A stretch of 64,000 bases of DNA from Marsupella aquatica (lineage: Eukaryota; Plantae; Marchantiophyta), in assembly GCA_973895155.1 (NCBI GenBank), contig OZ316894.1, positions 2,124,457 through 2,188,456 on the forward strand, given 5' to 3'. A program made the translations under genes and the position numbers. The number at the start of each line of letters is the position of its first letter. Positions within the stretch are counted from its first letter, which is position 1. This document shows, in pieces, positions 1,970 through 63,410 of this stretch. The notes below the pieces were generated by a model. The model was not told the origin of the DNA. It was given only the letters and a program-made list of their open reading frames with translations, and searched no databases.

Positions 1970-4820
1970 CTAGACTTTGATGTGCTCTTCGAAGACCTCC
2001 ATATGCTCGGGCTCCAGTGCCATGACAAGGTTGAGTCCACCATCCTGCGTGCCGTTGGACAGCAGCAGGACAAACTCCACTAGAGGAGTAACGATGGGAC
2101 CTGCGTAGATGGGCTTTCCCCAGCCATAATCGATGGAATAAAAGGGCATCTTCCACCAAGCACTGAGGAAAAATCCTCCGAAAAGCGCCGGGATGCCTTT
2201 CCTTGTCTCCCCCCAATCAAATGATGACCTCACGTAGTCATCAGTGACCTGAGCAATAGCCTTTTGAATCACCTGCACCGCCTGGACGTAGGTGTACTTT
2301 TTTATTTCGCTGGGGATTCCTCTGGCGCAAGCAGAGTATACTGCATTTCCAGCGAAGTGCTTGGGAAGTGGAGGAATCACCCTGCTGCGGATATCCACCG
2401 CAAACAAAAGGTTGAACGGAGTCTCCGGTAACTCCACAGATTTCGTCCTGGCAAGCCAAATGTGGGCTGCTACGACCTCAAATGTCGACACTCTTTTAAT
2501 GACTCCTCCCTCAAGAGCTCTCTTCTTCAGGGTGTCAATATCCGCAGGAGTGAAAGGGAACGTTTTGGTGACGTGGGTCGAAATATTTTCGAGCTCCATA
2601 AATTCCTTGTCCATCTCATCAGGAATCGAGAAGGGAGAAACACCGGCATCAAGGCCGGGAATATCATCGGGAAGCTCAAAATTTTCGGGATGATCGTATT
2701 TCACGATGGGGGGATCTCTTGCTTTCAGAGATGACCTGTCGTAAGTGGGTGTAAACAGCAGGCCCTCCCCTCTAGCGATGGAAGTCCAATTGAGGAAGAA
2801 GTCAATCGCTCCTGGCCCGTCAAAGAGTGTATGGCTCATCATAATACCCATTGTGTAGCCCCCACATTTGAAGACTGTGACCTGTCATAGAGAAGGTACA
2901 CAGTACGTTGTAAGTTGATCTCCCATCACAAGACAAGAAGAGAAGAGAAGAGTAGAGAATAAGATGCAATTTTTTGGATGTTCACTCGAGAGGGCGTAGA
3001 CCGATAAAACAGCAGGCTAAGAGGTTCTCTCATCGTGCTTGCACCTGCTCAACGGTATAAACATCATTGATCATTACATTTCAGCTCTCCTGCCCTCAGC
3101 GTTTCCTTACCCTACTTCTCAATTGGCAGAACACAACCAGAAAATAGCACATGACTGAAGTCCCTCACATACTTCTTTTTCAGATTCCTCCATTCACTTA
3201 GCTCTTGACAAATGTTGCGACGTAGCTGATCAGATCTGACATCATCTATTCCCTGCCCTTACAGGACACGAACTTAAGTTATCGCTGTTTCCTTGAATCG
3301 TACCACATCAGGCCATAGCTCATTCTCCCGGACATATGGCAATGACAGAGACTTGGGACAGCACGACGGAGGCAGATGGTCCTATCCGGCTGAAGTGGAG
3401 ACGCCGATATCTGCCACCAGCAATGTAAACTATAACTGCCCATCCAACAAGTCTCCAGGTGGCCCAAGGAAGCTCTGTAGATCAACTACTCCATTATACG
3501 AATACCACTCTCAGCCGTTACCTTCATCCACGCCCCTCACATTCCTTACTCCTTCGCAAACCCAGATCGTGTGAGAGTAAGGGCATCCATCCTGATGTTC
3601 CTAAAATGTCAAGGCTTGCAACTTCTCACCCATCGAAGAAGAGACAAAAGTAATAGCCATCTGCCAAATGAACATAGCTACTGCAGATCTGCAATTCCAT
3701 GAACGGAGCTAGCTCTGGGTAATGAAGGACTCCACATTTGCATGTATCCTATCCTATCCATTCATCCTTCGTCTAAATGCGCTCCTGGGCACACATTGTT
3801 CAGACACTGTCAGCCCCTCAGATCTGTTGTTCCCAACCGTTCAGGAACTACGACTGTAGGTGAGACAAAGACACGAAGCACCATCGTCTCGCTCAACGGA
3901 ACACATACAAGCTACATCGTGTCATTAACCTTGAAGGCAGTCTAACGTGCCATTAATGTCAAGCAGACATCAAAATAAGAGTGACAACTCTCAATCTGAA
4001 ATGCACAGTAAAAGTACTGGCTGCACGGTTCCAGCCCAAGCAACGGGTGAACTAACTGCATTGGGATCTACCTACCCCCTCACACACTCATGCCCCGAAC
4101 AGGGAAAAGTCGACGGCAATGCGGCGTTGAAGCCCCATCAACGCACGATCTTCAGAGAGGGTCCTCACCTTCAATGGGGACGGTGAAGGCGCAACCCAAA
4201 CGAGTCACAATCAGAAACGCGACAAGTCCAGGGAGTGTGACCCATTCCATAGAGAGGGCCATCACATGAGGCTCTGATTGGAGCATGCAGAGGATTTGGG
4301 AGATTGAAAAGACATGTGAGGGACGAAGGAGTCAGAGCAATGCGAAGCAAGAAGCAAAACCCACCTGCACGGCGAGGAGAGGCGTATCCAACGCACTCGT
4401 GACGTTGAGGAACTTGGTTGGAACCAACTTCCTGAAGAGGGGGTTCGGCTGGACCACATCGCCCAAATCGGAGATCCTGACATCGCTAGTGCAGTGAGTG
4501 AATTGGGCTCCAGTCCTGTTGAGGTCAATCTCCAGCCTCCTGCTGCCGGGCCCCTCCGGCTTCAATCTCCCGGTCATGAAATGGTATGGCACCAGAACCT
4601 TGGCCAGAGACTCCTTCAGCGTCTCCACCAAGTTATCCACAGGCTTGCTCGGATTGGGCGGGTAAAAATACACCGTCTCGACCGGGATCACCAAGCACTG
4701 GTCGATGTTGCTCAGGAAGAGTCTGCCGCCTGGAGTGGGCTCTGCTGGGACGATGATCGCCGTCTCCCCCACTTTTGAAATCTTCAGATCTGTCACCACC
4801 GCCGGCCCCTCGGACCCCAT
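1970..4820 (-). CDS. BAHD acyltransferase, omega-hydroxypalmitate O-feruloyltransferase (ASFT/HHT)-like; 2 exons (4820-4365, 2881-1970), ~455 aa
   Basis: ATG at 4820, LFLSNIDQ...VETVYFY N-terminus, catalytic HxxxD (HTLFDG) and DYGWG motif. A phase-0 GT-AG intron follows the conserved Q (LLAVQ|VTVFKCGG), and the exon lengths 456+912 keep the frame. Confidence 0.93.
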
Positions 4821-5382
4821 CTTGTCAAAATCTCCTCTCCTCCTCACGAGCTGAGACTCGCTCCCTTAACAGCGAAGCTGCCTCTCTCTTCGTCCTCCTC
4901 ACCCAAATGCTCCAAACTGAGAAATGGCAGAGCTACGTGACCGATTGAGTGAGCTCTTGCTCTGTTCTCGTCACCTCTACCTCTCACTCCTCCGTCCTCT
5001 CCTTCTCCTTCTGTTGTTGCTGATGTGCTGTTTGTCCGAAGCTCTTGGATCTATCGATTGAAGCCTAGGACGAGAGTGGGGACATGGCAAGCTAATCAAC
5101 AACCTGTGCGCACCACCACACCGGGCTGGCAAGCTCAGCTACCACTACCGTTGGACGTTTAAAGCACTGTCAGAGATTCTGCTCTGCAAGGTACACAACA
5201 TCAACTGCAAATATACTACTCCCCCACTACTCCACCACAACGCCCGTTTTGATCACACCACACCTCCTACAGCAATTGCCAATCTCGTCGGAATCTCTCG
5301 TCCTGCTCCTCCCTCTTCTCCTCCTGTTCGTCTACTGTAGTACACCTTTTGCTGCTTCCTTTGTTCCTCCCTCTCTTCGCCT

Positions 5383-8118: not shown

Positions 8119-9048
8119 TTGGTTTATTCTATCTCTTTTGGTTACTTTTTTTTTTTTTTTTTAGCCCAGGCAATGAGTATTATGTACAAGGTTCTTGAGG
8201 AACTCATTTATTGTTGCCTATTGGGTCCCGCCATTCAATGTTGTGCTTTATCAGGCTTTATCAGGCATCCCAAGGGTATTTTCCCTGGTATACCCTTGGG
8301 ACAGTTGCCAGTTCATCCCTCACAATACACAGAAAAATAACCTAAGGATGGGTCAATCATGGCATTTGCTGCAAAACGCATTTATCACAACCGCTTGGAT
8401 GGGTAGAGCATCCCTAATCTTAAATAAAAAAGGAAAATTTTCAGCATCTTCTCCTTCACACAAGGTGACATTCAAAGGCCTAAAACTTACCCTGGTCAAA
8501 ACCCTTGCTTACATACCACTGAGTCTAGGGTCATGAGTGGGGCCTCCCAACAATCTATTGCAATTCACTCCCTCATTAGTACAGTCAATTTTATTAACAA
8601 GAACGAGATGGGAAACCTAGGTAGCAAAGGTCCATTGAAGACAGAGGGTGCTTCCCAAATCTATAACATTGCCATCTAACAGAGAGCACCAAAAGGGGAG
8701 AGGGAATCTCAAAGGCAGGAGAAACAATAGAGGGGAAAAAATCAGAGAAACACCCAGGAAGAAAAAAAACCCCAAATCCTGAGAGTCCACAACAACTACC
8801 AAAAAGCCTAAAGCCTATCAAGAACAAAGTGAAATGTTTGGTCACAAACTGGAGGCTTAAAGTCTGGATGGACTGGGACTTTTTCCATGAAGCCCCAATG
8901 GACAAGACAAACCTGTATGGACTAGACTCAAACACAGCTAGGGATATGCTTGGGTGCTGTTTGTCCCCGTTCCATCACAAAATTCAGGACACATGACATG
9001 AAAGATGAATGAAACAGCAGATCTCAATTTTATCATGCATCTCATAAA

Positions 9049-9583
9049 TGTCATGCCGAGGGACAGTGCCTCCTGTGCACATCGGTATGTCCCTCGCATG
9101 CCCGCTAGGTATGTAGTTAGGGCTAGTGTACTACTTGAGTTAGTGTCATGTTCTTGTAGCGAGTCTGGGCCGTTCTTGAAGCAAAGGTGTTTGTTAGTGT
9201 GATGCCTGGACCCGGTCCTACTTAGGGCATGTTTTTCTTTGCCGTTTTTCAGATCTTCTTGAATCGCTGTTGACACAGCTCAGACAGTGCTTGTCGGTTC
9301 CGTACACGGGATTCACACAGTGATTCGTTAGATGCTCCTGGCCGATCTTGGCATCCTGCCGGTTTTCGATTCGATTTCAGTACAAATGTTTCTCTTACGC
9401 CTCTTATATACAGAGGTTTACACCTCCACTACGTACATACCACCTCAGTTGCTTTTTCTTGGCACTTGTGAATGTGATTGGACTTTTTCTAAGGATGTTG
9501 GTTGCTAGCAGCTTGCACATATGCATTGCCGGTGACTTGTATGTTTTTGATACACTATGGCTACGATACTATATGTCACGACA
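9049..9583 (+). mobile_element. Solo X-Y terminal unit of the adjacent retrotransposon family, opposite orientation
   Basis: TGTCATG...CACGACA ends with a 4-bp TSD TAAA (9045-9048 and 9584-9587). It aligns over its full length, with scattered substitutions, to the reverse complement of 10377-10916. Confidence 0.93.
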
Positions 9584-10376
9584 TAAAGGCTAACCTCCAT
9601 TTCAACTAATGGTTTCCCCTTCTCTCTTAATCCACGATTAGAACCTCCTTTCTCTTATCATATATTTGTAAATGTTATTTTGGAAAACTGGCATAGCATA
9701 TGGGAAGCACCCAAGCAAAGCTTAAAAATTTGTCAAATGCAGAATAGAAGAGAACCCCACTTATTATTCAACTGATTACTACTACACGCCAGTAAGTCAG
9801 TTGCCAAAGGTCAAGGTAATGGAAATTTGATTTTGGAAATCTGCATACTTAGCATACAGGAAGCTTCCCAAGCTTCAAAAATTGTAAAATGCAAAACATA
9901 AGAGATCTCTACTTCTTATTTAACTGGTTACAGTTACGTTAGAAGTACACTTGTTGGCAATGGTCAAGGTGAGTCAAATACTCCATTGCCATGGAGTAGG
10001 AAATTGATTGTTGTTGATGAACATTAAAGTCAGTTGAATGGCATGCCCATGTGTAAGGAGCAATTACAAGAACAACCCTATGACCAGTTATTTCCAGGAT
10101 TTTGCAATTAGATTTCATCAGAACTGTCCATATCAAGTCCACTTTGGCTTTGCATGAGAGTGAGTGGTCACTTAAACAAGAAATCTGTCAACCTACCTGT
10201 ACCTCTCAATCCTACATACAGTACCTCTCAATCCTACATGGACCGAAGTGGGTCCCCAAAATTCTTATGTGGACAAAATTTAGGCCACCTCTTGAGGTGG
10301 TACTTTGAAGGAACGACTCTCATCCTGTAGGTACATTATTAGATGCACTGCCTGAACACCTTTTTTGGTGAGGGGG

Positions 10377-11096
10377 TGTCGTGACATATAGTATCGTAGC
10401 CATATAGTGTATCGAAAACATACAAGTCACCAGCAATGCATATGTGCAAGCTGCTAGCAACCAACATGCATAGAAAAAGTTCAATCACATTCACAAGTGC
10501 CAAGAAAAAGCAACTGAGGTGGTATGTACATAGTGGAGGTATAAACCTCTGTATATAAAAGGCGTGATAGAAACAAACGTACTGAAATCAAATCGAAAAC
10601 CGGCGAGATGCCAAGATCAGTCGGGAGCATCTAACGAATCACTGTGTGAATTCCGTGTACGGAACCGACGAGCAGCCTCTGAAAAACTCTGTCTCACAGC
10701 GATTCAAGAAGAACTGAAGAACGGCAAAGAAAAACATGCCCTAAGTAGGACCGGGTCCAGGCGTCACACTAACAAACCCCTTTTGCTTCAAGAATAGCCC
10801 AGACTCGCTACAAGAACATGACACTAACTCAAGTAGTACATTAGCCCTAACCATACCTAGCGGGCATGCGAGGGACATGCCGATGTGCACAAGCGGCACT
10901 GTCCCTCGGCATGACAGCTGTCGTGACATATAGTATCGTAGCCATATAGTGTATCGAAAACATACAAGTCACCAGCAATGCATATGTGCAAGCTGCTAGC
11001 AACCAACATGCATAGAAAAAGTTCAATCACATTCACAAGTGCCAAGAAAAAGCAACTGAGGTGGTATGTACGTAGTGGAGGTATAAACCTCTGTAT
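10377..11096 (-). repeat. 3' repeat block Y1-GC-X2-Y2 (element orientation)
   Basis: The Y copies (178 bp) differ at 1 position. X2 (362 bp) differs from X1 at 4 positions. The 2-nt GC spacer is at 10917-10918. Confidence 0.95.
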
Positions 11097-11103
11097 CCCC
11101 CCC
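11097..11103 (-). other. Polypurine tract (G7) directly abutting repeat Y1
   Basis: The minus strand reads ...GTCTGGGGGGG|ATACAGAGG, ~32 bp after the pol stop codon. Confidence 0.7.
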
Positions 11104-11135
11104 AGACCACAGCCAAAAGGAGGGCTGAAGAAAAG

Positions 11136-12673
11136 TCAGATAGCACGTGGAGCACAGGAAGGGCAAAACCATAACCCTTCTGGCACCTGGGTAAGTTCAG
11201 GCCGAAGGCAGAAAAGATGGTACCCTCCATTGCAATTGTCACACAGCAACATCTGGTCAGCATCATCAATTCGCAAACACACTTTGCAAGGGTAGTCCAC
11301 AGGTGGAATCCAAGTAGAAGTCACAATGGTGGGATCTAGGTTAGGCAGATGACAAGGGGCACAATTCTTGGCATTGTCAGCAATTGTGCGCCCATCTGCC
11401 CCTTGTAACTCTAGCACTCCAGACGGTCGAATAGCTTTAACCCTGAGAATAGTATGACTGGTAGAGGTGTCCAGGGTGTCGTTAGCTTGCCGCTGCAAGT
11501 ACACAAAATCTCCACATCAAACTTCCTGACCTTGGGCTGAAAAGTGCCCCCTCGTGTGTGTGCATAACGCAGTGTGTCCCTGTGTTGTGCAATGGCCAAA
11601 TTCTCCATGGCCATGGGCATAACCCTCCTGAATAGGGCAGCCCTCTCAGAGATCACATCAGACCAAGTCACAGCTGAATCCAAGTCCACCACCTGAAGCA
11701 TGTGAGCAGCAATAGCAGAAGGTGGAACTGGGTGACGACCAAACAACAAGAAGTAGGGAGAAAAGTTAGACAGTGATGCATGTCTGGACATCCTATACCC
11801 CATGGCAATGTAGGGTAAGGCCAGGTCCCAATCTTCCTTGTTTTTGGTGAGGCAGATCTTTCGAAGACCCTTCTTGCATGTCTGAACCATGCGTTCTGCC
11901 AAGCCATCTGCCTGTGGGTGATCTCGTGATGTCCGGCGATGATCAATGAGGGCCTGATCAAGCAGCTCCTGGAACTCTCCTCTAAACTCTGAGCCCTGGT
12001 CAGTGAGACATTCTGCACAAGCTCCAAAACGACTAAGAACTTGTTGCAGGAATGCCTGGCTGGTGCTACGGGAGGTCTTATCCGGCAATGCCACAAGTTC
12101 TATCCACTTGGAGAAATGCTCTATCATGATCATGATGTAGAGATTACTCCGAGACGTGAGGGGTAATTCTCCAGCCAAATCACATGACCAGCGATAAAAC
12201 ATGCCCTGAATGGGGAGTGGATGAAGTGTGGGTTGCCGAGATGTGAAAGAAGTCCTCACCCTATCACACTGTTCACACCGGGCAATAACATCTCGAACCT
12301 GGCCATGCATGCCTCTCCAATGATAATGAGGGACCAAGAGGCTGTAAGTCCTCTTAACGCCAAAATGACCAAGCTCAGAATGTACCTTACGGATAAGGCC
12401 AACCCTCTCATGAATGGGTGGAACCACCACTTCCTTGTCTGGCAAGCAGCGCACGAGATGATCTCCCTTCCACAAGTAGCGCTTGGACCTTTGCTGAATT
12501 CAGTCTCTCTGGGCAGCAGTAACATGTGTGGGGTACTCCCCATGCTGCAGAAATCTCAGAGTGTCGCTGTCCTCCCATATGTCCACCACAGGTTGGTCAA
12601 CAACATAGCATGGCAGCAAAGCAAGATACGTCGATGCATGAAATGTAGGCAGGATGGAAACCTGGTCAAAATC
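11136..12673 (-). pseudogene. Integrase (HHCC zinc finger, DDE core) with C-terminal SH3-like segment and PHD finger; disrupted
   Basis: VHSELGHFG...CEQC, WSCDLAG, LTDQGSEF, HPQADGLAER. PHD CKVC...LLCDNCNGGYHLFCL...WFCPSC at 11154-11288. In-frame TGA at 12500-12502 and a frameshift near 11510 (FDV[G]DFVYLQ). Confidence 0.92.
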
Positions 12674-14216
12674 CTACCGTGCATCTGAGGAATCATCAGA
12701 GGCAATCAAAGGGCTGCGGGACATAGTGTCAGCATTTTGATGTGTCACACCAGGCCTATGAATTACCTCAAAATCATACTCCTGGAGTATGAGCGCCCAA
12801 CGAGCAAGCTTGCCAGTAAGCTTGTCGTTGGTCATCAACCACTTCAAGGGCTGGTGGTCGGTGTAGAGAACAAACCTGGTCCCATAGAGGTAGGGCCTGT
12901 AATGTATGACAGCCCACACAACAGCAAGGCATTCACCCTCATAAGAAGAATAATGACTCTCTGCCTGATTGTTGCTCCTGGATGCATAGGCAATGACGTA
13001 CTCTTTACCTTCCTCATCATGCTGGCCCAGAATGGCACCAATCCCAAGGGCACTCCAATCTGTATGTAGCACAAAGACCTTGTTGAAATCAGGTCTTCTC
13101 AGCACCGGGTATTCTGAGAGCTTCTCCTTCAAAGTGGCAAATGCTGCCTCAGCATCTGTACTCCATGTCCAAGTCACATTCTTTTTCAACAAAGCATACA
13201 ATGGGTGTGCAATGGTACTGAAATCTTTGATGTAGATCCGGTAGTAATTGCACAACCCAATAAAACTCCTCAAAGTGTGAACATCGGTAGGAGTACGTGG
13301 GCATTTCCAAGATGGATACCACCTTGGCCCAGTGAGCCATGGTTCCATTTGGAAGAATGCGATGCCCAAGATATACTACTGATCTGACAGCAAATTCACA
13401 CTTCTTGGGGTGTATCTTTAGGTTCACCTTCTTAAGCCTCATGAATAGCTCCTCAAGGTCAAGTAGATGCTGGTCAAATCCTTTGCTGTGGACCAACACA
13501 TCATCAATGTAGCATTTCAGAAACTCAGCACCTTGAAGAACCTGGTCCATGACTCTTTGAAAGAATATGGGCGCATTCTTCAAGCCAAATGGCATCACCA
13601 ACCACTCCCATAGTTGGTTACTGCCATGGAAAGCTGTTTTCTTGCGGTCCTTTGCAAGCAGCAAAATCTGGTTAAAGCCTTGCCTTAGATCCACAAGAGT
13701 GAAGATGTCTGAGTCTCCAATGCTGTCAAATAGCTCCTCTGACCGTGGCATGGGGTATCTGTCCTGGGGTGTGACCAGGTTCAATGGCCTGTAGTCCCCA
13801 CACATGCGCTTCTCTGTCCACAATCCACTGGAATCCTTCTTTGCTGGCATCACTGTAGCTGCCGCAAAATTTGATGTAGATGGTTGAATAAGACCAGCTT
13901 CATAGAGCTCTTGGCACCTCTCATCCACCAGCTGCCACTCATGCTTACTCAAACGGTGTCTCCGCCTGAAGATAGGTGTTTCATCAGCCAACTCAATGGA
14001 GAACTGCATAGTCTTGCACTTACCCAAGTCCTTCATAGAGAAAGCAAACACATTCTCATGCTTGAGGAGCAAATTCAGCAGCTGGTCCTTCTGTCTTTTA
14101 CTCAGGTGGTTGCCCATGATAAATGTGTAGTTGGCAACACTAGGAATAGGACCTGATGTACTCGTACTTGAAGAGCCATAAGTGCCAGCCTCTCCACTGT
14201 CCAAGCTGCTAGCATG
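12674..14216 (-). pseudogene. Gypsy-type reverse transcriptase + RNase H; disrupted
   Basis: RMCGDYRPLN, VDLRQGFNQI, MPFGLKNAP, YIDD; RNase H LHTDWS, YEGECLAVVWA, YTDHQPL, NADTMSR. Frameshift near 13295-13298 and TAG at 12674-12676. Confidence 0.95.
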
Positions 14217-14469
14217 CTACTGATAAGGTGATGAGGCCTCTCCAAGGCCTGCTGTACCTGCTGATCCGAAGTGGTCCACACCATGAAACTCAGAAATAAT
14301 GTCAGCCGCATTACAAGGGACCTCCTCCCCCCCAACACTTGGACTGAAGTGGTGAGTGTTGGACAGAGGTAAGTGCACCTGGTCTGGATGCCATGCAGCA
14401 GCACTATGGAGTGGTAAGGCTGGAGCTCCTAATGCTGGAGGAATGTACATCTGAAAAAGGATACAAGTG

Positions 14470-15413
14470 ACCAGAAGCCAAGTGAGAGCATTGAGATCCA
14501 TTACCCTGCCAAGTAAAGCATTCCTGGCCAGCCTGGTGATTTTGGTGTGACCTGTAGTACCGGGTTGGAAGCCCATAGCCCGTTCTCTCTCCTCAGGACT
14601 AGGTTCATCCCATGTACCGGTAGAATGTCGATAAACCAGACCAGGACCATCACCCTGAAAAGCATGTGCACCTAGAAAGGACACAAATGTAGGCCAAGTA
14701 GCACGGGGTTGTTCAATGGTATTGGCTGGATACCAAGGTGCTGGCTCTTGCCGTGTAACTGGTTGGCAAGAACTGTCAGGATCCAAAATCTGGTCCACTG
14801 TAAGGTTAGTGTCCCTGGATGTGTGGTGAAGAGCCATCTCCAGCAAGGAAGGTGGTGCAAGGTTAGTCCAAAAGTTACGAAGACGATGTGCATAAGAACC
14901 ACAGTGCACTGCATCAATGAGAAGGGGTGGTCCCAAGTAGTGCTGGACCACACTGAAATCCTCTTTGACCTGTGGACGCTGGTCAAACTGAGATGGAGTA
15001 TTCTCAATGATATAACCAACAGCAGGATAAAGGGATTGAGCCCAGGTGAGAATCTGAACCAATGCTGTGAAAAGGCCAGAACGAGAATCATGTAGTCCAG
15101 CACCGTGACCAGCAGCTAAAAACCCTTGGCATTCCCAACCAGCTATGATCAAATCAAGGGAGCCAAGAAGGGTTAAGTGCCGGTGCTGGACAAGCTGGAT
15201 ATCTGGAGGAAAGAAAGAAAATGCAGACTTCCATGCACTGTGTGGAAATTGCTGAGAAAATCGCTCTGAAAATTCCAGCAGACGGGATTCAGCCACTTGC
15301 CTTGCACCTGGATCAATATCCACATAGATGTACTGCTTCACCACCATGCCAGACTGTAGGAGAGCTTCCAGGCCTATAGAAATGCCACCAAAAAGCTCAA
15401 GCAATGTAAGGCC
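14470..15413 (-). CDS. C5 cytosine DNA methyltransferase domain (DNMT3-like) inside the polyprotein
   Basis: Motifs in canonical order: I LLELFGGISIG, II YVDID, III PDI, IV DLIIAGWECQG, V RSGLF, VI IIENT, VIII AHRLRNFWTNL, IX ERERAMGF, X RLARNALLGR. They lie in the uninterrupted ORF 14217-16541. Confidence 0.92.
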
Positions 15414-15749
15414 ATCTGAAGGAGGAGTCCATGTAACTGGTGCGCTCAAGATTGGGGCTATGGGTTGTCCATGATGCTGCCCAAGGTCCTCAAATTTGTG
15501 CAATGCAGCCACCAAAGGTCCTTGGGCTGCTTGGAGCCGTTGTACCACCTCTGGTTGATGATCCACGTTGCTGGAAAGTGCTGCTACACGTGCAGAAGCA
15601 TGTGCAGTAGCCACCTCATCCTCATCCTCCTCAATCCAATCCTGCAATGGGTGGTTGACATAGGTAGCTGTGTGCACTGCTTTCAACACACAGTGGTGAG
15701 CCATAGGGGTATGGGCACCATGCAAATCAAGTGGAATGTATCCCAAGTG

Positions 15750-16140
15750 TGAGCCATCCGTATGCCAATCAACTCTGTAGTATGCATGCTCATGCCAGTT
15801 GTCAATGGTAAAACCTGGTGGGAACAAAGCCTCCTGGCCAATGAGCACATCATACGTAGTGGCATTGGTAACCAAACATCTGACTGGGAAATGCAATTCC
15901 TGATCTGTACCTCCATTAAAAGTGAGAGTGAGTAAAGTAGAACTCTCACCCAGCACATCCTCCACAGTGCCACTAGCAGTCCGAATGTGCCACCTGGATG
16001 GCTGTAAATGATCAGTCAGCAGTCCCATCTTCTTGGCAAACTGAATGCCCAAGATTACTGGTTGAGCACCTGTGTCTAGCATGACCACCTGAGGAGTGTG
16101 ACCCTCCAACTTGACTGCTGAATTCCTATTGTCAACAATG
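15750..16140 (-). CDS. Retroviral-type aspartic protease domain
   Basis: VMLDTGAQPVILG (DTG at 16068-16076), flap IRTASG and YDVLIGQE. Confidence 0.85.
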
Positions 16141-16583
16141 GCAATGGTGGTGGAAACTAAAGTCCTGTCACTAGGCACCACTTTTGGCAAATGATGAGGT
16201 ACCTTGTGAAGGGAGTTAGTGTCCACGGTCTTCCCACTCAACAGCATAGCCAGGAAAGATGGAGCAGCATGACCAGAATCAAGTGTAGCTCTGGTCACAC
16301 AATCTGCAGCAATACTGTCATCTCTACCACTGGAAATCGGTACTGGGATAGCCAAACCAGTGGAAGCATGCAATGGAGAAGAAGAAGGTCCAGTATTAAC
16401 ATGAGATTGGACCTCCAAAACCGGTGTCACAGGGGCTGATGAAGAATGCAGTGAGCCCTCTAGCGCTCTGATGACAGCTCTAGCATCCAGCTGTAAATCA
16501 TGGCAACTGAAAAGTGGAGTGGTAAGAATCCTTTGTGCCATACTGGAGGTGAAATGCTCAAGCAGCTCAGGAAAAACAACTCC

Positions 16584-18527
16584 CTATGAAATGTCAGCAG
16601 CACCTGGTGGTGGAATGGATGTAGCTGCAGCTCCCTCCCCCCTCGCCAACAAGGTGCGCTCTTCAGCAAGTGTGAGTGGCTGAAAAGATTGGGGCATGAC
16701 AGCCCGAGCTCCCCTGGCTCTAGTCATAGGACCAGCAGCAAGACCATCAGCTTGTACAATGCGGCGTGTGGGAGCAATACGGGAGGCAGCACTGGCCTGC
16801 TGGTAAGCAAAATAGGAAGGGCAGAATGAATCTGAAAATTCTGCTGTAAGGCCAGGCTGTGTAGCAGAGGACAGCACACACTCACCCATATGAGCATCAA
16901 ATGGCAAGCCATAGAAAGAGCGGGGTAGGGGTGCTGAACTGTCAGTGGTGCCTGGGCCAGGGATGGGTTGCACGTGACCAGCCGGTTGAGAAGGACCAGC
17001 AGAGGCAGTGGACTTGCCTTTGATGTTGGCAAGTTGGGCACGTAATGACTCAACCTCATGAGTCAGAGACTGGAGTTGAGTTGCCTGTGCGTTGTGAGCC
17101 TCCTTCTGAGCTGGTTGCTTCTGTTGCTGCTTGGGCAATTTGTTAGCACTGGATGCTTTGCCACTGGAAGGAGGAGCAACGGATGCTGTAGGAGCCCTCC
17201 TAGCTGGTGGGGAAGTGGAAGCAGGAGCAGGATGAGTGGCCTACTGTCGTAGCTGCTTTCTCTCTAGGAATTTGGCAAAACAAACTGCCTCCAAGTGGCC
17301 CACTTTCCCGCAAAAATCACAAGACAGGTCCTCAACAACAATATCACATTCATTAGCCTTGTGATTGGGGTTACCACAGTAGTTGCAAGATGGCAGCATG
17401 AGAGCAGCATGGGCTGGCTTGGTCTTGGAACCATACTGTGGCACACGGGAAGGGGTGGCCAGTGTAGGGGCAGCAGCCTGGTACCTGGATCGCGGTGGAC
17501 GCGCAATACTGGCCTCATAATGTGCATGGGCCAACTCAAGTTTCTCAGTAGTGTCATAGACATTGAGCAGGGTGTAGCTGTCTCCAAACTCTGAGAATAC
17601 TTGCTGCAACACTTGCGAATGGAGAGCTGGTGTGCCCTCCAATGCGCGAAGATAGCGATGAGCAGCTTCCAGGTCAGTGATGCTCTGGGTGTCTTCCTTC
17701 AGCTTGAGAAGCCGGCGATACAGCATTTTCAATGTTTCATCGCGCTGCCTCACAAAGGTGGCCAACTGCATGATTTTATCAGCACTCTTGATTGGGAATT
17801 CCAATTCAAGAACCTGGAAAAACTCAGCCACTGGATCAGGAAAGGCAGGAGAATCAATGGTGGGATAAATGCCTGATGTAGCCTGTGCCAAGACAGTGGG
17901 AGTAACTGGTGCAGTGGTGGGAACTAGAGTAGGAGGGGAAGTGGCAGGAGCAGCAGCATGGGCTGCAATGGCATTCTGTAATGCCAGTTGTGAGGCAGCC
18001 GCAATTGCAGTGGCATATGCAGGGTTAGGCAATTGTGTGACAGCAAGCAGCCGTTGAGAGTGCTGCTCATACACATCCAAAGCCTCGTGGTGCACATACC
18101 TGGCTAGCTGCTTAAATGCAAAAGCATTTGTGAAATTGCTGCCATACTTCAACTCCAATTCGTAAACAACAGTGTAGAAAGTGGATTTGAACTCACGCAA
18201 AGAAACAGTGCCTGGCCGCCCGCTGAAGCGTTCAATGTGGCCAGATGAGTGACTGGCGTCCATGCTGTATGTCGGTGAAGCAGGAACAACCACGGATGCA
18301 GAAGGGGTAAATGGCAATGAAGTGATAGCAGGCTTGGGAGTAGTGGTGAAGCGACCGCCAAATGGAGCAGAAGGATTGCGTGGTGTGGGTGTTGCTGTTG
18401 TCTGTGGACGTCGTCGAAATTGCCGAGACTCCAATGAAATTGGCACCAATGGTCGTGGATCACTCCGTAAATGGTACCTGGGTGTCGGTGGCGATGTGCT
18501 GCTACCTCCTGGCTCGTCGGCTGACAT
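16584..18527 (-). pseudogene. Gag with two CCHC zinc knuckles and a low-complexity linker; in frame with pol but broken by TAG codons
   Basis: IERFSG, RQRDETL, CNYCGNPNHKANEC and CDFCGKVGHLEAVC. ORFs starting at 18527, 17138, 16541 and 14204 share one frame, separated by TAG at 17241, 16584 and 14217. Confidence 0.88.
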
Positions 18528-19189
18528 GCTGCATGCTCACCTGGGTGCCAATGGGAAAGAAACTGACAAGAAAAAGAAATGGCAGCCCCAAGGCTAGGAA
18601 ATAAAACCCACAAAGGAAACAAACAATGCGAGGCAGAAATGGGTAGAATGTGTAAGCACGGAGAAACCGTCACCGGAGAAAAAGGACCCTTAAAACCACC
18701 AAATTTTCCCTTGTCGCACTTACCTATGTGTATACATAAGCAAAGCAAAGAATAAGGGAAAACGGGCCCCTAGAACGTGAAAGGAGGGCCCCCTTTACGT
18801 GTATACCTCGGGCCCCTTGTGGACCCGGAAACTGGCAGCAAAGGTATGCAAAAGTAGGTGGGACGGTCGTCGCACGGCGAAGGAGCAAAAAGACCAAAAA
18901 CTAAAAGAAAAGGACCCCAATTAAGTGTATACACACGGGGGCGGGGCGTCGGCAGAAAAATGGTCATAGTGGGGACCGGCCGCGGTGCCCTATGCACATG
19001 CCCTCATGTGAGTCGAAAGACTCTGCAATCGTCGCGCAGCGGACGAGCAACCATGGGGAAAAAGAAACAGAAGAAAAACGGCTTTGGCAAGGGCGAAAGG
19101 AAAAGACGAGACCCAAGGCGAGGCGAGGAAAAAGAAAATGGGCCTTTAAGTGCTCGAGCCCTGCACAGGGCTTTGCGCACCCTCCCCCT

Positions 19190-19510
19190 CCTCTAATGCT
19201 GCCTAGGGCCTCGTGCCTGGCAGGACTGTGACTCCCGAGAGGAGGGAGTCGAATGTACTCCCCCTCTAATGCTGTATTGGGCTTCGTGCCCTCTCTTGGC
19301 AGTCTCGCTCCTCTCCTGCTCTAATTAATGCCTCATAGGCCTTCGTGCCTGGCAGAAGGACTCCTGTGGGAAGGAGTCGTATGTACTCCCCTTCTCCCTC
19401 CTGTTAATGCAACATGGGGCTGCGTGCCCTCTCTTGGCACTCGCTTCCCCCTCCCCTCTTTAATGTGTCATAGGGCCTCGTGCCCTCTCCTGGCACTCGC
19501 CCCCTTCCTC
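19190..19510. repeat. Degenerate tandem array (~5 units of 55-80 bp) in the retrotransposon 5' leader
   Basis: Recurring taatg...gggc(c/t)tcgtgcc(t/c)...ggca units, alternating between two variants. Confidence 0.75.
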
Positions 19511-20112
19511 TCCGTGGCTTGTGTTCGGCTCCCCCTCCTCTCCTCGCGCTTGTGCTCCTGTTCGGCTCCCCCTCGCGCTGAATTAAATGCTGGCCGAGAT
19601 GCTGGCAAAAGCAAGGGAGGAAGAAAAAAACACCGAAGGGAGGGCGCGCGGCCCTATGCGCGACCCAGGGGCAATGACGAGCCCCGCATGTGTATACACA
19701 GGCAGGACGGGGAGGCCGGTAGGAGAGAAAGAAAAACGTCCGGAGTGGGTAACATGGGCGTGCGGCCCTATGTGCGTGGTCGCCCCCTTGGCCGTGTGCA
19801 TACACAAAGGTGCGGCCTCTAGCTGCCAGGCGGCAAGAAAAGAAGGATCAAGAGAAGGGGCGAAAAGGCCCCCCTGAAAATGCAAAACCTCCTGGAAAGT
19901 GAGAAGCGCTCCCCTCGTCTCCTCCTGTGTGTACTCCGCTGGTCCGCAAATTTAAGTGTATACACATAAGTGATGTGTATACAAAGAAAAATCTAACTCT
20001 AACTCCATCACTAGATTTTTCTTCAAAGAAATTGCGCTGCTGTCGACGGAAAGTGTTGACCGTCGCGAGCAATTGAGAAACACAGCGTTTCTGATCTTCT
20101 TCCCTTCACTCG

Positions 20113-20128
20113 TCAGTTCTTCTTGAAT
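20113..20128 (-). other. Putative self-priming primer-binding site
   Basis: Perfect 16-bp inverted repeat of 20274-20289, located at the 3' edge of repeat X1. No TGG tRNA-type PBS is present. Confidence 0.75.
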
Positions 20129-20488
20129 AAAAGGCGTGATAGAAACAAACGTACTGAAATCGAATCGAAAACCGGCGAGATGCCAAGATCGGCCGGGAGC
20201 ATCTAACGAATCACTGTGTGAATTCCGTGTACGGAACCGACGAGCAGCCTCTGAAAAACTCTGTCTCACAGCGATTCAAGAAGAACTGAAGAACGGCAAA
20301 GAAAAACATGCCCTAAGTAGGACCGGGTCCAGGCGTCACACTAACAAACCCCTTTTGCTTCAAGAACAGCCCAGACTCGCTACAAGAACATGACACTAAC
20401 TCAAGTAGTACATTAGCCCTAACCATACCTAGCGGGCATGCGAGGGACATGCCGATGTGCACAAGCGGCACTGTCCCTCGGCATGACA
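20127..20488 (-). repeat. 5' terminal repeat X1 (362 bp)
   Basis: Direct repeat of 10555-10916 with 4 transitions. Confidence 0.95.
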
Positions 20489-23400
20489 GGGGCCATGTAA
20501 ATGGACCTGCGGATTAGGTGTGATAAAACTCAAGTGGCAGTCATTTTGTTTAACCCCCTTAAGACACTGGGGCTTAGATGTGTGCCAAACAATATCAAGG
20601 TCAGTTCAATCAATCCCAAGACCATGGGAGTTTGAAGACTCCCATTCTTGCCCTGAAGACTCGTCTTATCTTGTCATTGCCCTCCTGGGTATTGAGTGCT
20701 CAAAACCTCAATACAAGTAGGATGAAAGATGCTCAAAGAGTATCCACCTAGTAGCATTCAGGGAATTTCTTATTCTCTCACAAAATTGCAGAGCAGTGCC
20801 CTGCTGGTAAGGTGAAGGCTGCTCTCTATTATCCAATGGCCAAGATTTGTTCATCCTGTGGAAGCATTATAACTGGGTATTCCAATAGAATTTGGAGTTA
20901 GTCTCAATCATAATTCTTGGTAATAAGTACATAAGACGAGTACTCCCCACAACTTGCTTGTTTCCAACTACTTTAAAAAATGGGCTTTACTGGACTGCCA
21001 GTTTTTGTGGTCAAGTATCATGACTTGCCATCATTTTTAGATTATTACTACCATGCCACTCTTTTCATCGCTGCTTCAGTAACTCAACCCTTGTTAATTA
21101 GCAGAGATCCGATCGCCACATTGCATAATCTGTTGGACCCATCACCCTTGGAGCAGGGCATTGGGAGGTGGGCGATGGGAACCATCAAATTGTCAATGTG
21201 ATCATCTCAGGGCTACAAGATCTCTTGTGGTTAAGAAGGGTTTAGTGGCTAAATTGGGACAAAAAAGGGTACTATTCTAGTACTTATTCTAAAAAAGTGG
21301 CAATTTAGGAAAGCGCAGTCCAAGATTCTATTTTAATAAGGTGCAGTAGCAGTCATATCCAAAGGCTGCCCCAAGAAAAGTCCATTCCAAAAGTGTGGGA
21401 GCTTACTGTCCATTCATAGTGCAGATCACTTGCAAACTGAGCCGAGACTGATGACATTTCCCACCTTCCCACTTGAAGGCAAAAAGGGTTGTTAATACAT
21501 ACATTACAACGGTGGTTGGATTGGGTGCCAGGCTTTTGTTTTTCTCAACTGATTTGCGATGGGCCTTTTTCAAGGAGACCTCGAGTGAGACTCACCCAAT
21601 ATTGAAATCTGTCATCTTCTTAAAGAATTATTATTACACCTTGGTTGTTGGAGTGTCATGACAATAACAACAGGATGGTGGCATTGCTAGTTCAACTCCA
21701 TCTTTTGTGAGTTGGCTGGAGCGATGTCTTCATAGTTCAGATTCTATTGCCCAATATTCCAGTCCTTGGGTGTCATTGTAACTATGGAGGGGTCATATAT
21801 CAGGTAGCACGTTATTTATGAGCCTCAAATAAAATTATATGACACAAACCATATACTGTAGATGACACATGATATTCTTTAATTTAAAACCCTGTCATTT
21901 TCACTAAATTCTTTACAAGTCGTCTCAATATTGTTTAAAGAAACACAATACTTTTTGCAAGTCTTGTCCTGGTATATACAACAGAGTACTTTATGTCCTA
22001 ATTACAAGGAACGGTCCATGTCTCAATTTGAGAGAAAGGGGAGGAGTTAAATACTACCTTCTATACCCTTCCTCCCCGTCCCTTGCTGGTAAATGTACAC
22101 CAAAACGGGTTAACATATGGTGTACTGTGGGCATGTGCCCAGGTTGGACAGATTTTCTACACGACCATAAACCTACTCTAATGATGTTGTTGGGTCACTG
22201 AGTGCTCCTACCTGTCACTCTGCTTTCTAATCTGCAATTACAGGTTCCCATCTTTGCATGTTTACACTTGACAGCTTGCATTACACTTGCTTCAGCCCGA
22301 GGTAACTCTGCATGGGCTCGATTTGAGATAATTACTCTACGTAAAGTTGATTGAGAGATAATTAGTCTATGTCCACGTTACCGAATCTCCACTTGCAGTC
22401 CACTCACGTCAATAGAAACGAGATTTTCTCATTTTCAGTTGTGTCGCATCGCTTGCTTTGTTTCACCCGACAGTACTTTTGGACACAAGCTTAATTAGCT
22501 TCCCTACGTCCAAAGGGCTCAAAAGGATAAACAGTAGGCCGTGTTTAAGTGCACTGTTCATAAGTGCATTTTGTGTTTGAGCACTTATAATTGCAAATAT
22601 ACTTATCCATATTCACTGCCTAAAAAAGACCGAAACTCACTTTAAATGAATAAGTATAATCGCAATTACATATGGGACTGTCTCAATGCTTGTGTGTTGG
22701 ATATTATTGTCACTACTAAGTTGGTGTTTTGGCAGTTTGGAATATAGTAAGTGATGTTGAGTGGAAGTATAGTCGAGCATAAGTTACATGACTGAACAGT
22801 CAAATGCTGCAGGGGGATTGGTGAGTCAGCCTGGCAACTAGATTTGAAAAATTGTGCAAGATGTTGGGAGAGTGATTGGGATGGGCACCGACAAGGTGAA
22901 CAATGGCACCTTTAGGCCTATCTCATGGTTAAAGAAAATGTCACCATAATCAAACAGTAAGGAAGGTTTTGCTGGAGAGACATTTGTAAACACATCATGA
23001 TGAAGAAAGAGAAAAATCACATGCTATAATGTTTAGATAAGAAATTTCATAGACATGTTTAGAAAGTATGACTTGCACTAATCCATCAAATATGATTAGG
23101 TAGTAGCCAACCAGTGCATTAGAAGTGCAAACTCTTTGATGTGTGCATTTCTAACAAAACATTTGTACTGCAAAGTGTTCTGCACTTGAGGCTATAGGAT
23201 AATTTTACCTATAAATGCAAAATTGATCAAGCTTGCACTTATGACATAGTGTAAACCATGTATAAGTGCACAATATGTGTCTTTCAAATTTCATGCACTT
23301 ATGCATGGCTGTAATTGCATTTTGAGATTGCATGAAATTCTAGCTGAGGAGAGAGCAGCAAATCGGACCTTCTGTTTTTGGGCCCCAGTGCCCATGCCCA

Positions 23401-24923
23401 ACGACTCTCCACCTATTATCCTGCAGCTTAACGTGGGTCCTTTTTCCAGTGTAGCCGTGCACTTAAGTTGCTGATTTTAAAGGGAGCTCCAAGTACGTCA
23501 TTCTCGAGTGGCGGTACATAAGTGGATTGTGCTGAGCTCGGTGCTGATCGAGGTCCATGCATAAGAAGTCTTTGGGAGCGTTGCACTTTTATGTGTCAAC
23601 TATTTGAGGACTTTTCACTGAGCTTAATTTTTAAGATTTCTTTTTAGCGAGAGTGACCCTGACACCTTGTGTGAAGGAGAAAATGTTAGGGGAAAAGTCT
23701 TTATTGTATTTTCTAGATTCATTTTTGACCATCAGATCTCCCTGTATCTAAGGATAACCATCAGATTCTGTGGCAAGGTGGGAAATTTGCTTATAAAAAT
23801 GGAAAACAAAAAAACTAGCAAAGACTTTTCGGGGAAGTGAAAGCTGTTATGTCTGTCGCACTTGTCTCCTCCTTTATGGGTAAACAACTCCATATATGCC
23901 ACTGCCAAAACAACAGGAACTCCAAACCTGGAGACATGATCTCAAAAGCCAAAAACCCAATAAAGGGAAAGTAAAGGGGAAAACCCCAAGAAGACCAGAG
24001 AGGCCCAACAAACCAAGGAGAATCCCACAAAAACTAAAACAAATTACTAAGAAGCAACAACAAACTTCTAAACAATTGGTTTTTGTTTACAATTTTTCTC
24101 TAGCTTCAAGGAAACTTGCAAGTCTGCCAAGAACCAGATGTACAGGTCTGCCAAAAAAAATATTTACAGTTGGTAGGGGTGTTTAAAAACTTGGGGCATC
24201 TTTTTCAAAAGTGAATCATCCTTCCAAAAGCCAGTCAGTGTGAATTTAGCGTTTAAAATAAGGCAGCATCCATGGAGTTGGGCAAGACATAACTTAATCT
24301 TCTCAACATGCTTTATAATATTCTGACAATTAGCATAGGTTTTACAAGTACTCTAAAATGTTTTGTAGGTCAGGTTCAGAATTTTAATAATTATTGAATT
24401 TTTGCACTGTGATGGCTCTAAGGAAATATGCCTGCAGCAGTATCTTTACCAGGAACCTCGCTAATAATTGGTCCCACCAGAAGAAATCCTAAGCAAATCC
24501 CTGGTCTCCTCGATCTACCCAGTTAAGTTTCTGTTCAGGAGTAAATTAAAAACATTATATATAACATTGCAAAAGAAACTCAAGAGCCAAATGGGGAGGC
24601 AAGATAACAAGGGATTTTCTAAGTAATTTGTGCATGAGCAACTACTTATCACGGTGTGAATGTATAACTCTTAAGAACCAGTTTACAGATCACATTTCAG
24701 TCAAAATTGCAAATAGTGCTATCAAACGTGTTTGAACATTTTGTGTTAACCCATCTCAACTTTGGAAATCCATGCTTCACAGCAAACCTCTCGTCCATCT
24801 AGACCTAATATTTGAGCATCTTGATGTAAATATATAGCATTTCAAAGAATACGTGAGCTTAAAAAATTAAAACAATAAAATAATATGTAGGTTACTGAAA
24901 AAGAATTATAATATCGTGAACGA

Positions 24924-28100: not shown

Positions 28101-30120
28101 AAAACATTGGCAACTTCTGTTAAGAGAATTGAGAGAGCTTTGAATTGCCAAAGATGCATGACTGTCTTGTTTTCTGTCTCACCTCACTCTCTTGTGTGAT
28201 ATGTATCATCTGCTTTGATCCGACAAGGTCAAGAAACTCCTTTTCAGGGTTTTGGCAAGCGTCCATCTGAGAATCAATGAAAAGCCAGATTAATTAAAAC
28301 GTTTTGGGGTTCTTTAAGATTTAAGCCTCTTACGATGAAACTCAAAACAACAACAAAAACTTAGTAGGAAATCACCATGGAAATGAGGGGAATCAGAAAT
28401 CTTGTACCATGTACACATATTGTCACGTGAATTTATCTCAAGTTTTAGATCTTTAGGCATGTTAGTCACATCATGGTTTGTTTCTTACAAATCTTACTCG
28501 AGTTTATGAAATTTCATCACCTTGAAAATGAAACTTTATGAGCTTGAAAAAAATCCAATAAGTGTTAATGAGGCTCTCCAATGTCATGAATAAATTTTTA
28601 CGGCTAAATGTGCACTAGATGGGTCAGTCTGTATGGAGCCAGAATGAGCACTTTTTGGATGTGTGGCTTGTGTCATTTCAACTTTGTAGGGTTTTCTTAG
28701 AGTGGAGTAAAGCAGCCCTGGCTGACCGTAAGCCATGTTTTCTGGCCAAGGTTAGCGCGCAGGAGTCTTCCCCAAACTTTGGTCATGCACATACCTTTTC
28801 CAGCAAGCATGGCCCCACTCCAATCAGTCACCATCTTTTTCTAAACAATTGGATTGCAGTAGGGACTAGGTTGTTGGTTTTAGGGCATGTAGACAAATTC
28901 CTCTTCGCGACACTCCTATGGGGTTATTTCTGGGAGCTTCACCAGGCTTGCTGCTGAGTTGGGCTTTAGCTCTTGTGAATGTCTTTCTAGGGGACTCTTT
29001 GGCTTTTAGGCTCATTCATTTCCTATTGTTTTCTCTTGCCTTTGGCGTCCTGTCTTCAGCTTTCACACTTTTTGCTCTTTGGAGACATAAACACTAAATT
29101 ATGTCAATGTCACACATGCGAGAAAATTGTATTTTCTGATAATTATTTTATAGTTTTTAAGTACATTGCCACAATCCAGATGTTTGGATTTATAATACTG
29201 CCACGGTTTGTTTTTACAAAAGTGCCACAATTTTGTATATAACTCCTCTGGTTACCTTGGGGAACTTGTCATCCATATACAAAATCATGATATTTTTATA
29301 AATACAAAAAAAATATGACACTATTATCAATTAGAACATCTTTAGTGGCAAAGTACTTAAAAGCTGAATTATTTTAATGTCACTTTTTTTTGCCTAATTA
29401 TATACTTCAGCTCTGACTAATCTGTCCCCAGAATCAAAACCGCCCCATGTGATTAATGTTCCCCCCAAGCAAAATTGATTATGAATCCGTCATCCATTTC
29501 GTATTCGGGTCCAGTTGCCATGATTGTGACAACTCACTATTGGCTAGCCTTAACCTGGGGCCACCCTCCTTGGCCCCCCTTCCCTGTTGCAGGGCACACT
29601 TGCAAGTTCAGGAGGGGCACAAATATGTTGTTTTCCGCTCCACACTCCCCTGACTAAAACCTAACACTTTTGGCCCTCGTTTTTACTCAGGAAAATGTGC
29701 AGTGGGGAAAGGGAATGGGGCCATGTGGGGGTTTATAGTGACAACCTATACAAGTTTATACTGACCCTAATATGAAATGGGGGACGGATTGATAATTAAT
29801 TTGTTTTGGGGGCACATTAGTAATATAGGGTAGTGTGGGGAACAGGTCAATAAAAAGCTGTTACACACTTTGCCATTCCTTTAGTCTAAACCTTTCTCCT
29901 CCTTTGCTTAAGGAAAGTAATTCTAGCTGGCTGGGAATGATCAAATGGTCAACATCATGCAAGTTCTCATCATCGGACAGTAAGTTGTCATTGTCGGTAA
30001 CTGAACCTCAACACCCTCTCGCAGCCCTTCATCAGGGTGGGAAGTGGGCCAGGCAGCCAGGTGGCGCCAAAACAAGAGACCCAACTTAATGTTGAGGGTT
30101 AGTAAGGGTGTTGTGGTGAG

Positions 30121-30505
30121 GGACTGGCAAAGCTTGGATGGACTTGCTCAGAACATTTAAACTGACTCAGATAACATTGTCTACACTTTTGACTGAAATG
30201 TGAATAGTAAACTGTCCCCTTATTGTTTGCAACCGGTTTCAATTTCATTACTGAATCGGTTTCCTCGGCAATTGGATGACTTGACGACCTTCAACCCGGA
30301 AGACATCATGCCATTACTCTGAATCACCATGACATCTTGATTATTTTCTCCCCAAGGTAATCAAATTCATCAGCTATGATCTGTGACCAGTTCTTTTTCT
30401 GCGACCAGTTCTTTTTCTGCGACCAGTTCTTTTTCTTTAGAGTGTAAAAGCAACAATTGCATTATGCAGTCTATGGGGATGGGTAGGGACAATGTCTCCG
30501 ACCAT
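30121..30505 (+). repeat. Dispersed repeat, copy 1 (contains an 18-bp unit x3 at 30385-30436)
   Basis: Colinear with 63063-63410 (ggactggca.agcttggatgga...ctcagataacattgt.tacact.ttgactgaaatgtga...catgccattactc...ggatggg.agggacaatgtctc). Confidence 0.8.
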
Positions 30506-30680
30506 CTGGGCTGTTGAACAATTGCATGTAACAAATATTAGCTCTCAGATTTGTGAGATGCAGCGTTGAGCCTCCTGGGATCATTCACGAGTCTCTGTTG
30601 TGAGTAAAAGCTCTCCAAAATACAAACGGATCCTCTTGAGAGCATTCACATTTCACAAGTTTCGTCTAGACGCTATTATC

Positions 30681-63062: not shown

Positions 63063-63410
63063 TGGACTGGCATAGCTTGGATGGATTTTCTCAGAACATT
63101 GAAATAGACTCAGATAACATTGTTTACACTGTTGACTGAAATGTGACCTGTAAAGGGTCTCCTTATTGTTTGCAGGCGGTTTTAATGACATTATCTAACT
63201 GGTTTCCTTGGTAAGTTCACAACTTGACTACTTTCAATGTCATGCCATTACTCAGGATCATAATGACATCTTGACTATTTTCTCTCCCCAAGGTAGTCAA
63301 AGTTATCAGCTGCAATCTGCGACCGGGTCCTTGTTCTTTTTGGTGTAACAACAATGATTGATTTACGCATACCATTGGGATGGGCAGGGACAATGTCTCT
63401 ATGCATCCAG
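63063..63410 (+). repeat. Dispersed repeat, copy 2
   Basis: Colinear, diverged match to 30121-30505. Confidence 0.8.

Follow-up and report, generated by a model that had tools for sequence, protein, structure and literature searches.

A Ty3/Gypsy-type retrotransposon family with split terminal repeats, found in liverwort DNA, and its possible integration through a palindrome lying within the long terminal repeat

The window analysed here, a stretch of 64,000 nucleotides (nt) from the liverwort Marsupella aquatica (GenBank assembly GCA_973895155.1, contig OZ316894.1, positions 2,124,457 to 2,188,456 of the forward strand), carries on its minus strand, from 20488 to 10377, what can be described from its sequence as a broken but young retrotransposon of the Ty3/Gypsy type. 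Its terminal repeats are split into two pieces, X and Y, and in element orientation the order is CCCC, X1, internal region, Y1, GC, X2, Y2, CCCC, with CCCC (GGGG on the plus strand) as a target-site duplication (TSD). This X..Y-GC-X-Y layout is real and family-wide, and is a non-canonical integration product of a Gypsy clade. The features of the element and of a solo copy beside it, in window positions, are the following:

20489..20492, minus strand: left TSD, CCCC in element orientation (sequence)
20127..20488, minus strand: X1, 362 bp, starting with TGTCATG (integration end, from sequence), presumably distal U3, R and U5
20274..20289, minus strand: predicted self-primer at the presumed transcript 5' end, complementary at 16/16 positions to the primer-binding site (PBS)
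20113..20128, minus strand: PBS of the self-priming type at the border of X1 and the internal region, predicted by complementarity
17241..18536, minus strand: gag-like frame with a CCHC zinc knuckle (Pfam E 0.0023; conserved in relatives)
16584..17240, minus strand: in-frame middle segment of the polyprotein, an open frame with no informative Pfam family
14217..16583, minus strand: aspartic protease (PF13975), then a C5 DNA methyltransferase-like domain (PF00145 weak; homologs with PF00145)
13149..14216, minus strand: reverse transcriptase (RT; Pfam E 4e-29)
12674..13375, minus strand: ribonuclease H (RNase H; Pfam), in a different frame, this copy broken by stops and frameshifts
11411..12499, minus strand: integrase, H2C2 and DDE core, 34 residues from second D to E (Pfam, profile alignment)
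11136..11516, minus strand: integrase C-terminus with PHD finger, in a different frame (Pfam E 8e-13)
11097..11103, minus strand: G7 polypurine tract (PPT) immediately 5' of Y1 (sequence; conserved in three families)
10919..11096, minus strand: Y1, 178 bp, presumably proximal U3, with terminus CACGACA (sequence)
10913..10922, no strand: palindromic site GACA-GC-TGTC, the abutted integration ends plus a 2-bp spacer, predicted integrase cut site
10555..10916, minus strand: X2, 362 bp (sequence)
10377..10554, minus strand: Y2, 178 bp, blunt to X2, with terminal CA (integration end; sequence)
10373..10376, minus strand: right TSD, CCCC in element orientation (sequence)
9049..9583, plus strand: independent solo X-Y of the same family with a blunt join, TSD TAAA at 9045-9048 and 9584-9587

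X1 (20488-20127) and X2 (10916-10555) differ by 4 mismatches over 362 bp, and Y1 (11096-10919) and Y2 (10554-10377) by a single one over 178 bp. The border between X2 and Y2 is blunt, with neither gap nor overlap, the spacer between Y1 and X2 is GC, and the termini of the element are TG...CA, flanked by a 4-bp TSD where a 5-bp one does not fit. These coordinates, the spacer, the X2/Y2 abutment, the ends and the GGGG duplication had been described in an earlier note made from the sequence alone, and all were confirmed. The neighbouring solo X-Y is 91.5% identical, is joined bluntly as in the main element and has its own TSD. Sequencing contigs from four runs, which may include the source sample, cover the 3' repeat block: the border between flank and Y2 is crossed by one contig with 0 differences, and the X/Y and PPT/Y1 borders are bridged by others. 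No contig from these runs spans 10200-11400, so that misassembly is not directly excluded by reads. In two runs there are loose contig ends at 10555 with the sequence CTTCTTGA, which is the PBS start in reverse complement. At 19194-19507 the element's long 5' leader contains imperfect direct repeats, all of them short (54-166 nt, ~73%).

Metagenome contigs were scanned by alignment, which confirmed at least 553 relatives; the best 80 loci (68-83% identity), here called family 2, were kept and their layout scored with natural X and Y pieces from three loci as probes. The X..Y-nn-X-Y arrangement (nn standing for the spacer) was found in 12 of these 80 loci, corresponding to 11 distinct insertions, and X..Y in 8, while XY..XY, YX..YX and X-Y-nn-X..Y had no representative among them. 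In the remaining 60 no left end was visible; 5 of these belong to the 20 loci that have a full 10 kb upstream. Right flanks, compared at 65 loci (54 distinct), comprised 26 Y-nn-X-Y ends and 28 single-Y ends. An exact 4-bp TSD bordered 7 of the 11 full copies (a 3/4 match in 3, none in 1), 5 of the 8 X..Y copies (a 3/4 match in 2, none in 1) and the single solo copy; an exact 5-bp TSD was met in none of the family-2 copies. The expectation of the earlier note that the layout would recur throughout the family with 4-bp duplications was thus borne out. Divergence within and between elements gave a weak contrast: X1 was nearest to its own X2 in 7 of 11 cases (one tie) and Y2 to its own Y1 in 4 of 11, the own-X distance being below the median of the others in 11/11 and the own-Y distance in 10/11.

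A third family, with 55% integrase identity, is represented by two contigs (L081 and L082) that are probably eukaryotic despite having been binned with a cyanobacterial genome. L081 shows PPT-Y-GC-X-Y-flank. L082 (1-9285) is a circular contig, its ends overlapping by 127 bp; it has one Y-GC-X repeat and domains in an order that looks intact, and represents either a collapsed assembly or a 1-LTR circle (LTR, long terminal repeat). Polyproteins of the clade with RT, RNase H, integrase and PHD are widespread, with named protein matches in Klebsormidium, Haematococcus and a Chrzof1-labelled alga. Viral contigs yielded no relative, either by protein or by the palindrome pattern.

Over the whole element, Pfam matched a zinc knuckle, protease, C5 methylase, RT, RNase H, H2C2, rve and PHD, the methylase match being weak (E 4e-4, below cut-off); the order protease, RT, RNase H, integrase is identical in relatives. 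The internal frames of the window copy are interrupted by stops and frameshifts. No tyrosine recombinase family was matched by Pfam in any of the 28 frames of at least 100 amino acids (aa) across the element, in agreement with the earlier note, which had read here a DDE integrase (now matched as rve) and no recombinase. At the integrase C-terminus Pfam found no chromodomain, only the PHD finger. The best PDB match of the integrase is Ty3 (E 4e-30), the closest named integrase is that of the liverwort Calypogeia fissa (88%), proteins of Klebsormidium nitens are 51-58% identical, and the ESM Atlas returned generic integrase clusters only. The spacing of 34 residues, D(34)E, was present in 168 of 169 matched integrases (278 proteins examined), one residue less than in Ty3 and prototype foamy virus by profile alignment, and is a possible diagnostic of the clade. 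Of 16 long family-2 loci tested, 14 have the methylase at the corresponding position. Distant methylase homologs, P0127-P0157 (35-44%), are accompanied by RNase H, integrase and PHD, often with no RT match; this composition suggests that in some families the methylase lies in another position of Pol.

The replication signals point to a repeat unit other than X-Y. In all three families the G7 tract abuts Y on its upstream side. At the other end, the last 2 nt of X and the following 14 form the exact reverse complement (16/16) of X positions 200-215, the best of 2000 shuffles reaching 13/16. In family 2 this pairing holds at 11/14 or better in 18 of 19 loci, at a fixed site ~30 nt after a TATA-like box, and the two partners carry two compensatory changes relative to the window; in L082 it is 13/13, with unrelated sequence and unchanged arrangement. 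By its complementarity, this covarying pair is likely to constitute a self-priming PBS. Since a PPT precedes Y and a covarying self-priming PBS follows X, Y-GC-X is likely to be the LTR of reverse transcription, which supports the proposal of the earlier note; with respect to Y-GC-X, the PBS follows the 5' LTR and the PPT precedes the 3' LTR, as in ordinary elements. Standard LTR replication yields [Y-GC-X]-internal-[Y-GC-X]. The ends of such a complementary DNA (cDNA) would lack TG and CA, and Y2 would never be copied from RNA. The two complete direct LTRs typical of Ty3/Gypsy, which surround an integrated element neither in the window nor in any of the 80 relatives (0/80), would then exist only in the cDNA.

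The TG and CA ends that bear the TSD meet within Y-GC-X as CACGACA-GC-TGTCA, the core of which, GACAGCTGTC, is palindromic. The window shares this stretch unchanged with families 2 and 3; it is the only part of the repeats for which window and family 2 can be aligned, X and Y being otherwise not alignable between these two. As judged from BLAST ends, the Y-X spacer is 2 nt long throughout. Its letters over 30 rows, read with a pattern that imposed the 2-nt length and including two row pairs that represent the same insertion, were GC in 10, AC in 9, GT in 6, AT in 3 and other in 2; thus 28 of 30 are GC or its transition derivatives, the spectrum expected from transition decay of GC. Nicks placed after CA on both strands would produce 2-nt 5' overhangs, as in ordinary 3' processing.

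The X/Y join behaves differently from the other borders. In a set of 27 distinct family-2 copies, 11 joins are blunt, 6 are 2 nt short at a shared AT, 4 carry 1-2 extra, PBS-like nt and 6 are of another form, with no indel at the PPT/Y1 border of the same copies; the constant junction foreseen by the earlier note was therefore not found. Four loci (L030, L034, L037 and L072) have an altered X/Y join while their own X1/PBS and PPT/Y1 borders are intact. L072, together with L076 and L078, represents one insertion with an exact TSD, whose join (L072 11905-12040) contains the PPT together with 137 nt of the sequence that lies upstream of it. This insert is 18% diverged from the internal copy, to be compared with 17% between X1 and X2 and 11% between Y1 and Y2, and could be the trace of too-early plus-strand priming at a cDNA end. 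Two-LTR circles with junction nucleotides arise by non-homologous end joining (PMC7197481; here and below, sources cited by identifier are taken for the accessible parts of their text). The variable X/Y join looks like such an end-joining scar of raw cDNA ends, and its lack of constancy favours fresh end-joining, in line with the ligation of raw ends assumed in the earlier note. A tree of the 27 copies labelled by join class is poorly resolved (1 of 24 branches starred, L057 on a long branch) and requires 12 label changes, where shuffled labels average 13.9 and 23 of 200 shuffles are as low; the one starred clade contains three join classes.

Taken together, internal cleavage of the palindrome and fresh joining of the raw ends, whichever comes first, very probably account for the layout. 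As to the order of events, the balance of probability leans modestly towards a route in which the DDE integrase cuts the CA-GC-TG palindrome of the cDNA's 5' LTR, the raw ends having probably been ligated into a 2-LTR circle beforehand. Transcription would begin in X1 and end in X2. The 5' end of the RNA would fold onto the PBS to serve, in the manner of Tf1, as minus-strand primer. With the G7 PPT as plus-strand primer, the product would be a linear [Y-GC-X]-internal-[Y-GC-X] with termini devoid of TG and CA. The integrase would then bind the palindrome of the 5' LTR, plausibly because this LTR becomes double-stranded much earlier than the 3' LTR: once the second strand transfer is over, some 9 kb of plus strand would still remain to be made before the 3' LTR, a timing bias that we advance as a hypothesis. 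Host end-joining would connect the end of X to the start of Y. Finally, the integrase would nick after CA on both strands, leaving 5' overhangs of GC, and the new ends would be inserted 4 bp apart. The X..Y copies could arise from 1-LTR circles, by cutting at both sites or by Y1/Y2 recombination and, lacking a 3' R, would be dead ends. Ligation before insertion is favoured by the continuation into Y of 28 of 30 Y-nn-X ends and by the cleanness of nearly all TSDs. A wider proposal stands, in our estimate, at even chances: an old Gypsy clade of the green lineage, self-primed, with a PHD-tipped D(34)E integrase and often methylase-bearing, may have relocated its integration ends to a palindrome inside U3, made 2-LTR circles obligatory and let the integrase settle on the 5' LTR site while reverse transcription is still under way.

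The distribution of products imposes a constraint on this scheme. A pattern search of the 80 loci found 17 cases of X followed by the PBS, none preceded by Y-nn, and 30 of X preceded by Y-nn, none followed by the PBS; with 5 further left ends also without Y-nn, the mirror product X-Y-nn-X..Y is absent from 22 of 22 left ends. The earlier note had envisaged a circle opened inside one LTR. The internal cut and the joined ends are supported, opening at random is at odds with the missing mirror product, and circle formation as the first step must be weighed against repair after insertion. The absence of the mirror form calls for an additional bias towards the 5' LTR site beyond the model of a free circle: either that site is preferred, or mirror copies are quickly lost through X1/X2 recombination into X..Y.

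Several observations weigh against circularization followed by internal cleavage. In a bare 2-LTR circle both sites are equivalent, so that the mirror form should be as frequent as the observed one; equal choice gives 0 of 11 full copies with a probability of 2^-11 = 5e-4. The scars at the join are explained just as well by ligation after integration. Of the 30 Y-nn-X ends, two (L047 from 3985 and L050 from 4841) are followed by unrelated DNA with no Y. The join class with 1-2 extra nt clusters on the tree (4 of 500 shuffles), which would be expected of an inherited variant. L082 has Y-GC-X-PBS in one piece, but as a circular contig. Moreover, most of the copies examined belong to one old family, and the cDNA, circle and cleavage steps are all deduced from sequence. 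Separately, L050 has an inverted relative 300 bp beyond its Y-nn-X end.

The alternative that survives best dispenses with the circle: the palindrome in the 5' LTR of the linear cDNA would be cut, both new ends inserted, and the resulting chromosomal break between raw X and raw Y repaired by the host. It would give the same product with the same variable join, and the ends of L047 and L050, which have no Y2, could represent failed repair of such a break. Each insertion would, however, entail a double-strand break, and yet 28 of the 30 ends continue into Y and TSDs are kept at 3/4 or better in 10 of 11 full copies; the identical, unexplained bias towards the 5' site would also be required. For these reasons repair after insertion is judged an unlikely, if serious, competitor. 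A templated route like that of PAT/Ngaro elements appears improbable. Here the RNA would extend from X1 to Y2, the X/Y join would be inherited, Y-GC-X would serve as splint or template, and the DDE integrase would act on ordinary TG...CA ends. It is consistent with the A..B-A-B layout known from DIRS-group elements (PMC5890265), with the clustering of one join class and with Y2 being closest to its own Y1 in no more than 4 of 11 elements. Against it, the placement of the PPT (before Y1) and of the covarying PBS (after X1) implies a standard replication that never copies Y2, the joins of L030, L034, L037 and L072 are altered next to intact X1/PBS and PPT/Y1 borders, and three join classes coexist within the starred clade. 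Finally, the idea that an ordinary element with two X-Y LTRs was rearranged in this single case or was misassembled, to which the lack of a contig spanning the whole 3' repeat block lends some room, is scarcely credible, given that the layout recurs in 11 distinct, independently assembled copies, that the 3' block recurs in a family of 55% identity, that TSDs are intact, and that the check suggested by the earlier note for copies with two whole X-Y LTRs found none in the 80 best loci.

The preferred route, cleavage of the 5' LTR palindrome in a ligated cDNA, shares parts with several known systems. In the PAT/Ngaro/TOC elements the B/A junction is the integration site, as proposed for the window element, and to our knowledge DIRS-group elements have no DDE-type TSD. 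Their A-coding-B-A-B layout (as given in PMC5890265) is that of the window element, which differs from them in its DDE integrase, 4-bp TSD, LTR-type PBS and PPT and absence of a recombinase match. The same publication (2018) states in the legend of its Fig. 4c that KnitGypsy-Dnmt3 of K. nitens combines a DIRS-type repeat structure with Gypsy domains; like the window element, it has a cytosine methyltransferase in Pol and DIRS-like repeats. The layout was therefore not, as the earlier note had supposed, undescribed for Ty3/Gypsy. The accessible description gives no TSD, PBS, PPT, palindrome or mechanism, and mentions PHD 0 times. A literature search for the name KnitGypsy-Dnmt3 finds only this source, and no K. 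nitens name occurs among 40 methylase matches of 433-1379 aa. The split layout goes unmentioned in the accessible parts of PMC6839031, PMC7197481, PMC9977147, PMC8557442, PMC8226300 and 10.64898/2026.05.21.726589. Another element, Gypsy-7a_cRei, with activity in laboratory strains of Chlamydomonas, carries a PHD and is described with "LTR subparts" (10.1101/2022.06.16.496473), the accessible text showing no split layout. No account of the insertion route came up in a literature search; one may exist in Repbase, theses, figures, supplements on bioRxiv or subscription journals, which that search did not reach. The layout has been noted in print once, and the mechanism appears to be untested.

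Self-priming has been reported for the Tf1/Sushi and Tcn1 chromoviruses (PMC6317226), whose PBS is likewise complementary to their own repeat and not to a transfer RNA; the window element differs from them in matching a PHD instead of a chromodomain and in its split repeats. The survey in that source required two LTRs with TG/CA and, in its accessible part, does not mention PHD, so that elements of the present kind would be missed. As regards cleavage, the integrase of human immunodeficiency virus 1 (HIV-1) cuts the palindromic 2-LTR junction internally (PMC1905944) and, as in foamy virus (PMC1180852), internal cleavage at a palindrome of abutted ends resembles what is proposed here. In these viruses the palindrome is the ligated end junction and its use a side route, whereas in the window element it would be encoded within each LTR, the ligated junction would go unused and the products would be the normal ones. 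Among bacteria, there is a DDE transposase that integrates junctions whose ends abut across a short spacer (PMC7780238), and the copy-out/paste-in insertion sequences (IS) ISCth4/IS256, IS911 and IS30 share with the proposed route a DDE enzyme, a junction of abutted ends, a short spacer and a TSD. They are bacterial DNA transposons whose junction is remade by the transposase in each cycle, while here it would be copied through RNA. Ginger1 (PMC2836005) has a Gypsy-like integrase, TGTNR ends, a 4-bp TSD and, in one family, a PHD; the window element has none of its 40-270 bp terminal inverted repeats or its CCGG/CCGT target preference, and has an RT. As TGTNR is general to Gypsy (same source), the link to Ginger1 was reduced to a lead.

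Elsewhere in the window, two Transferase-family (PF02458) frames lie at 1970-2884 and 4332-4865 (minus strand), upstream of the solo copy, and frames with cysteine-rich repeats (PF00839) at 34043-35781 (minus strand). Open frames of 349, 489 and 362 aa, at 48256-49305 (plus), 49788-51257 (minus) and 52489-53577 (minus), have no Pfam match at E 0.001. A dispersed repeat family, likely another transposon family, is present at 30118-30512, 63061-63413 and 24679-24723 (74-88% identical, one piece inverted).

For LTR elements, 2-LTR circles are normally regarded as dead ends. Whether retroviral 2-LTR circles or internal palindromes can serve as integration substrates is an old open question, and what evidence retroviruses provide is for a side activity. 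In the present case an entire clade of retrotransposons appears to insert normally through an internal palindrome, which makes the question directly testable with a single integrase and a short oligonucleotide. If true, this would be the retroelement counterpart of bacterial paste-in transposition, and would link DDE LTR elements both to split-repeat recombinase retroelements and to bacterial IS that integrate from circles. An integrase inserting circular donors by way of a short site could also interest genome engineers. For bryophytes and algae, the finding means that LTR finders demanding two whole LTRs are likely to miss this methylase- and PHD-bearing clade.

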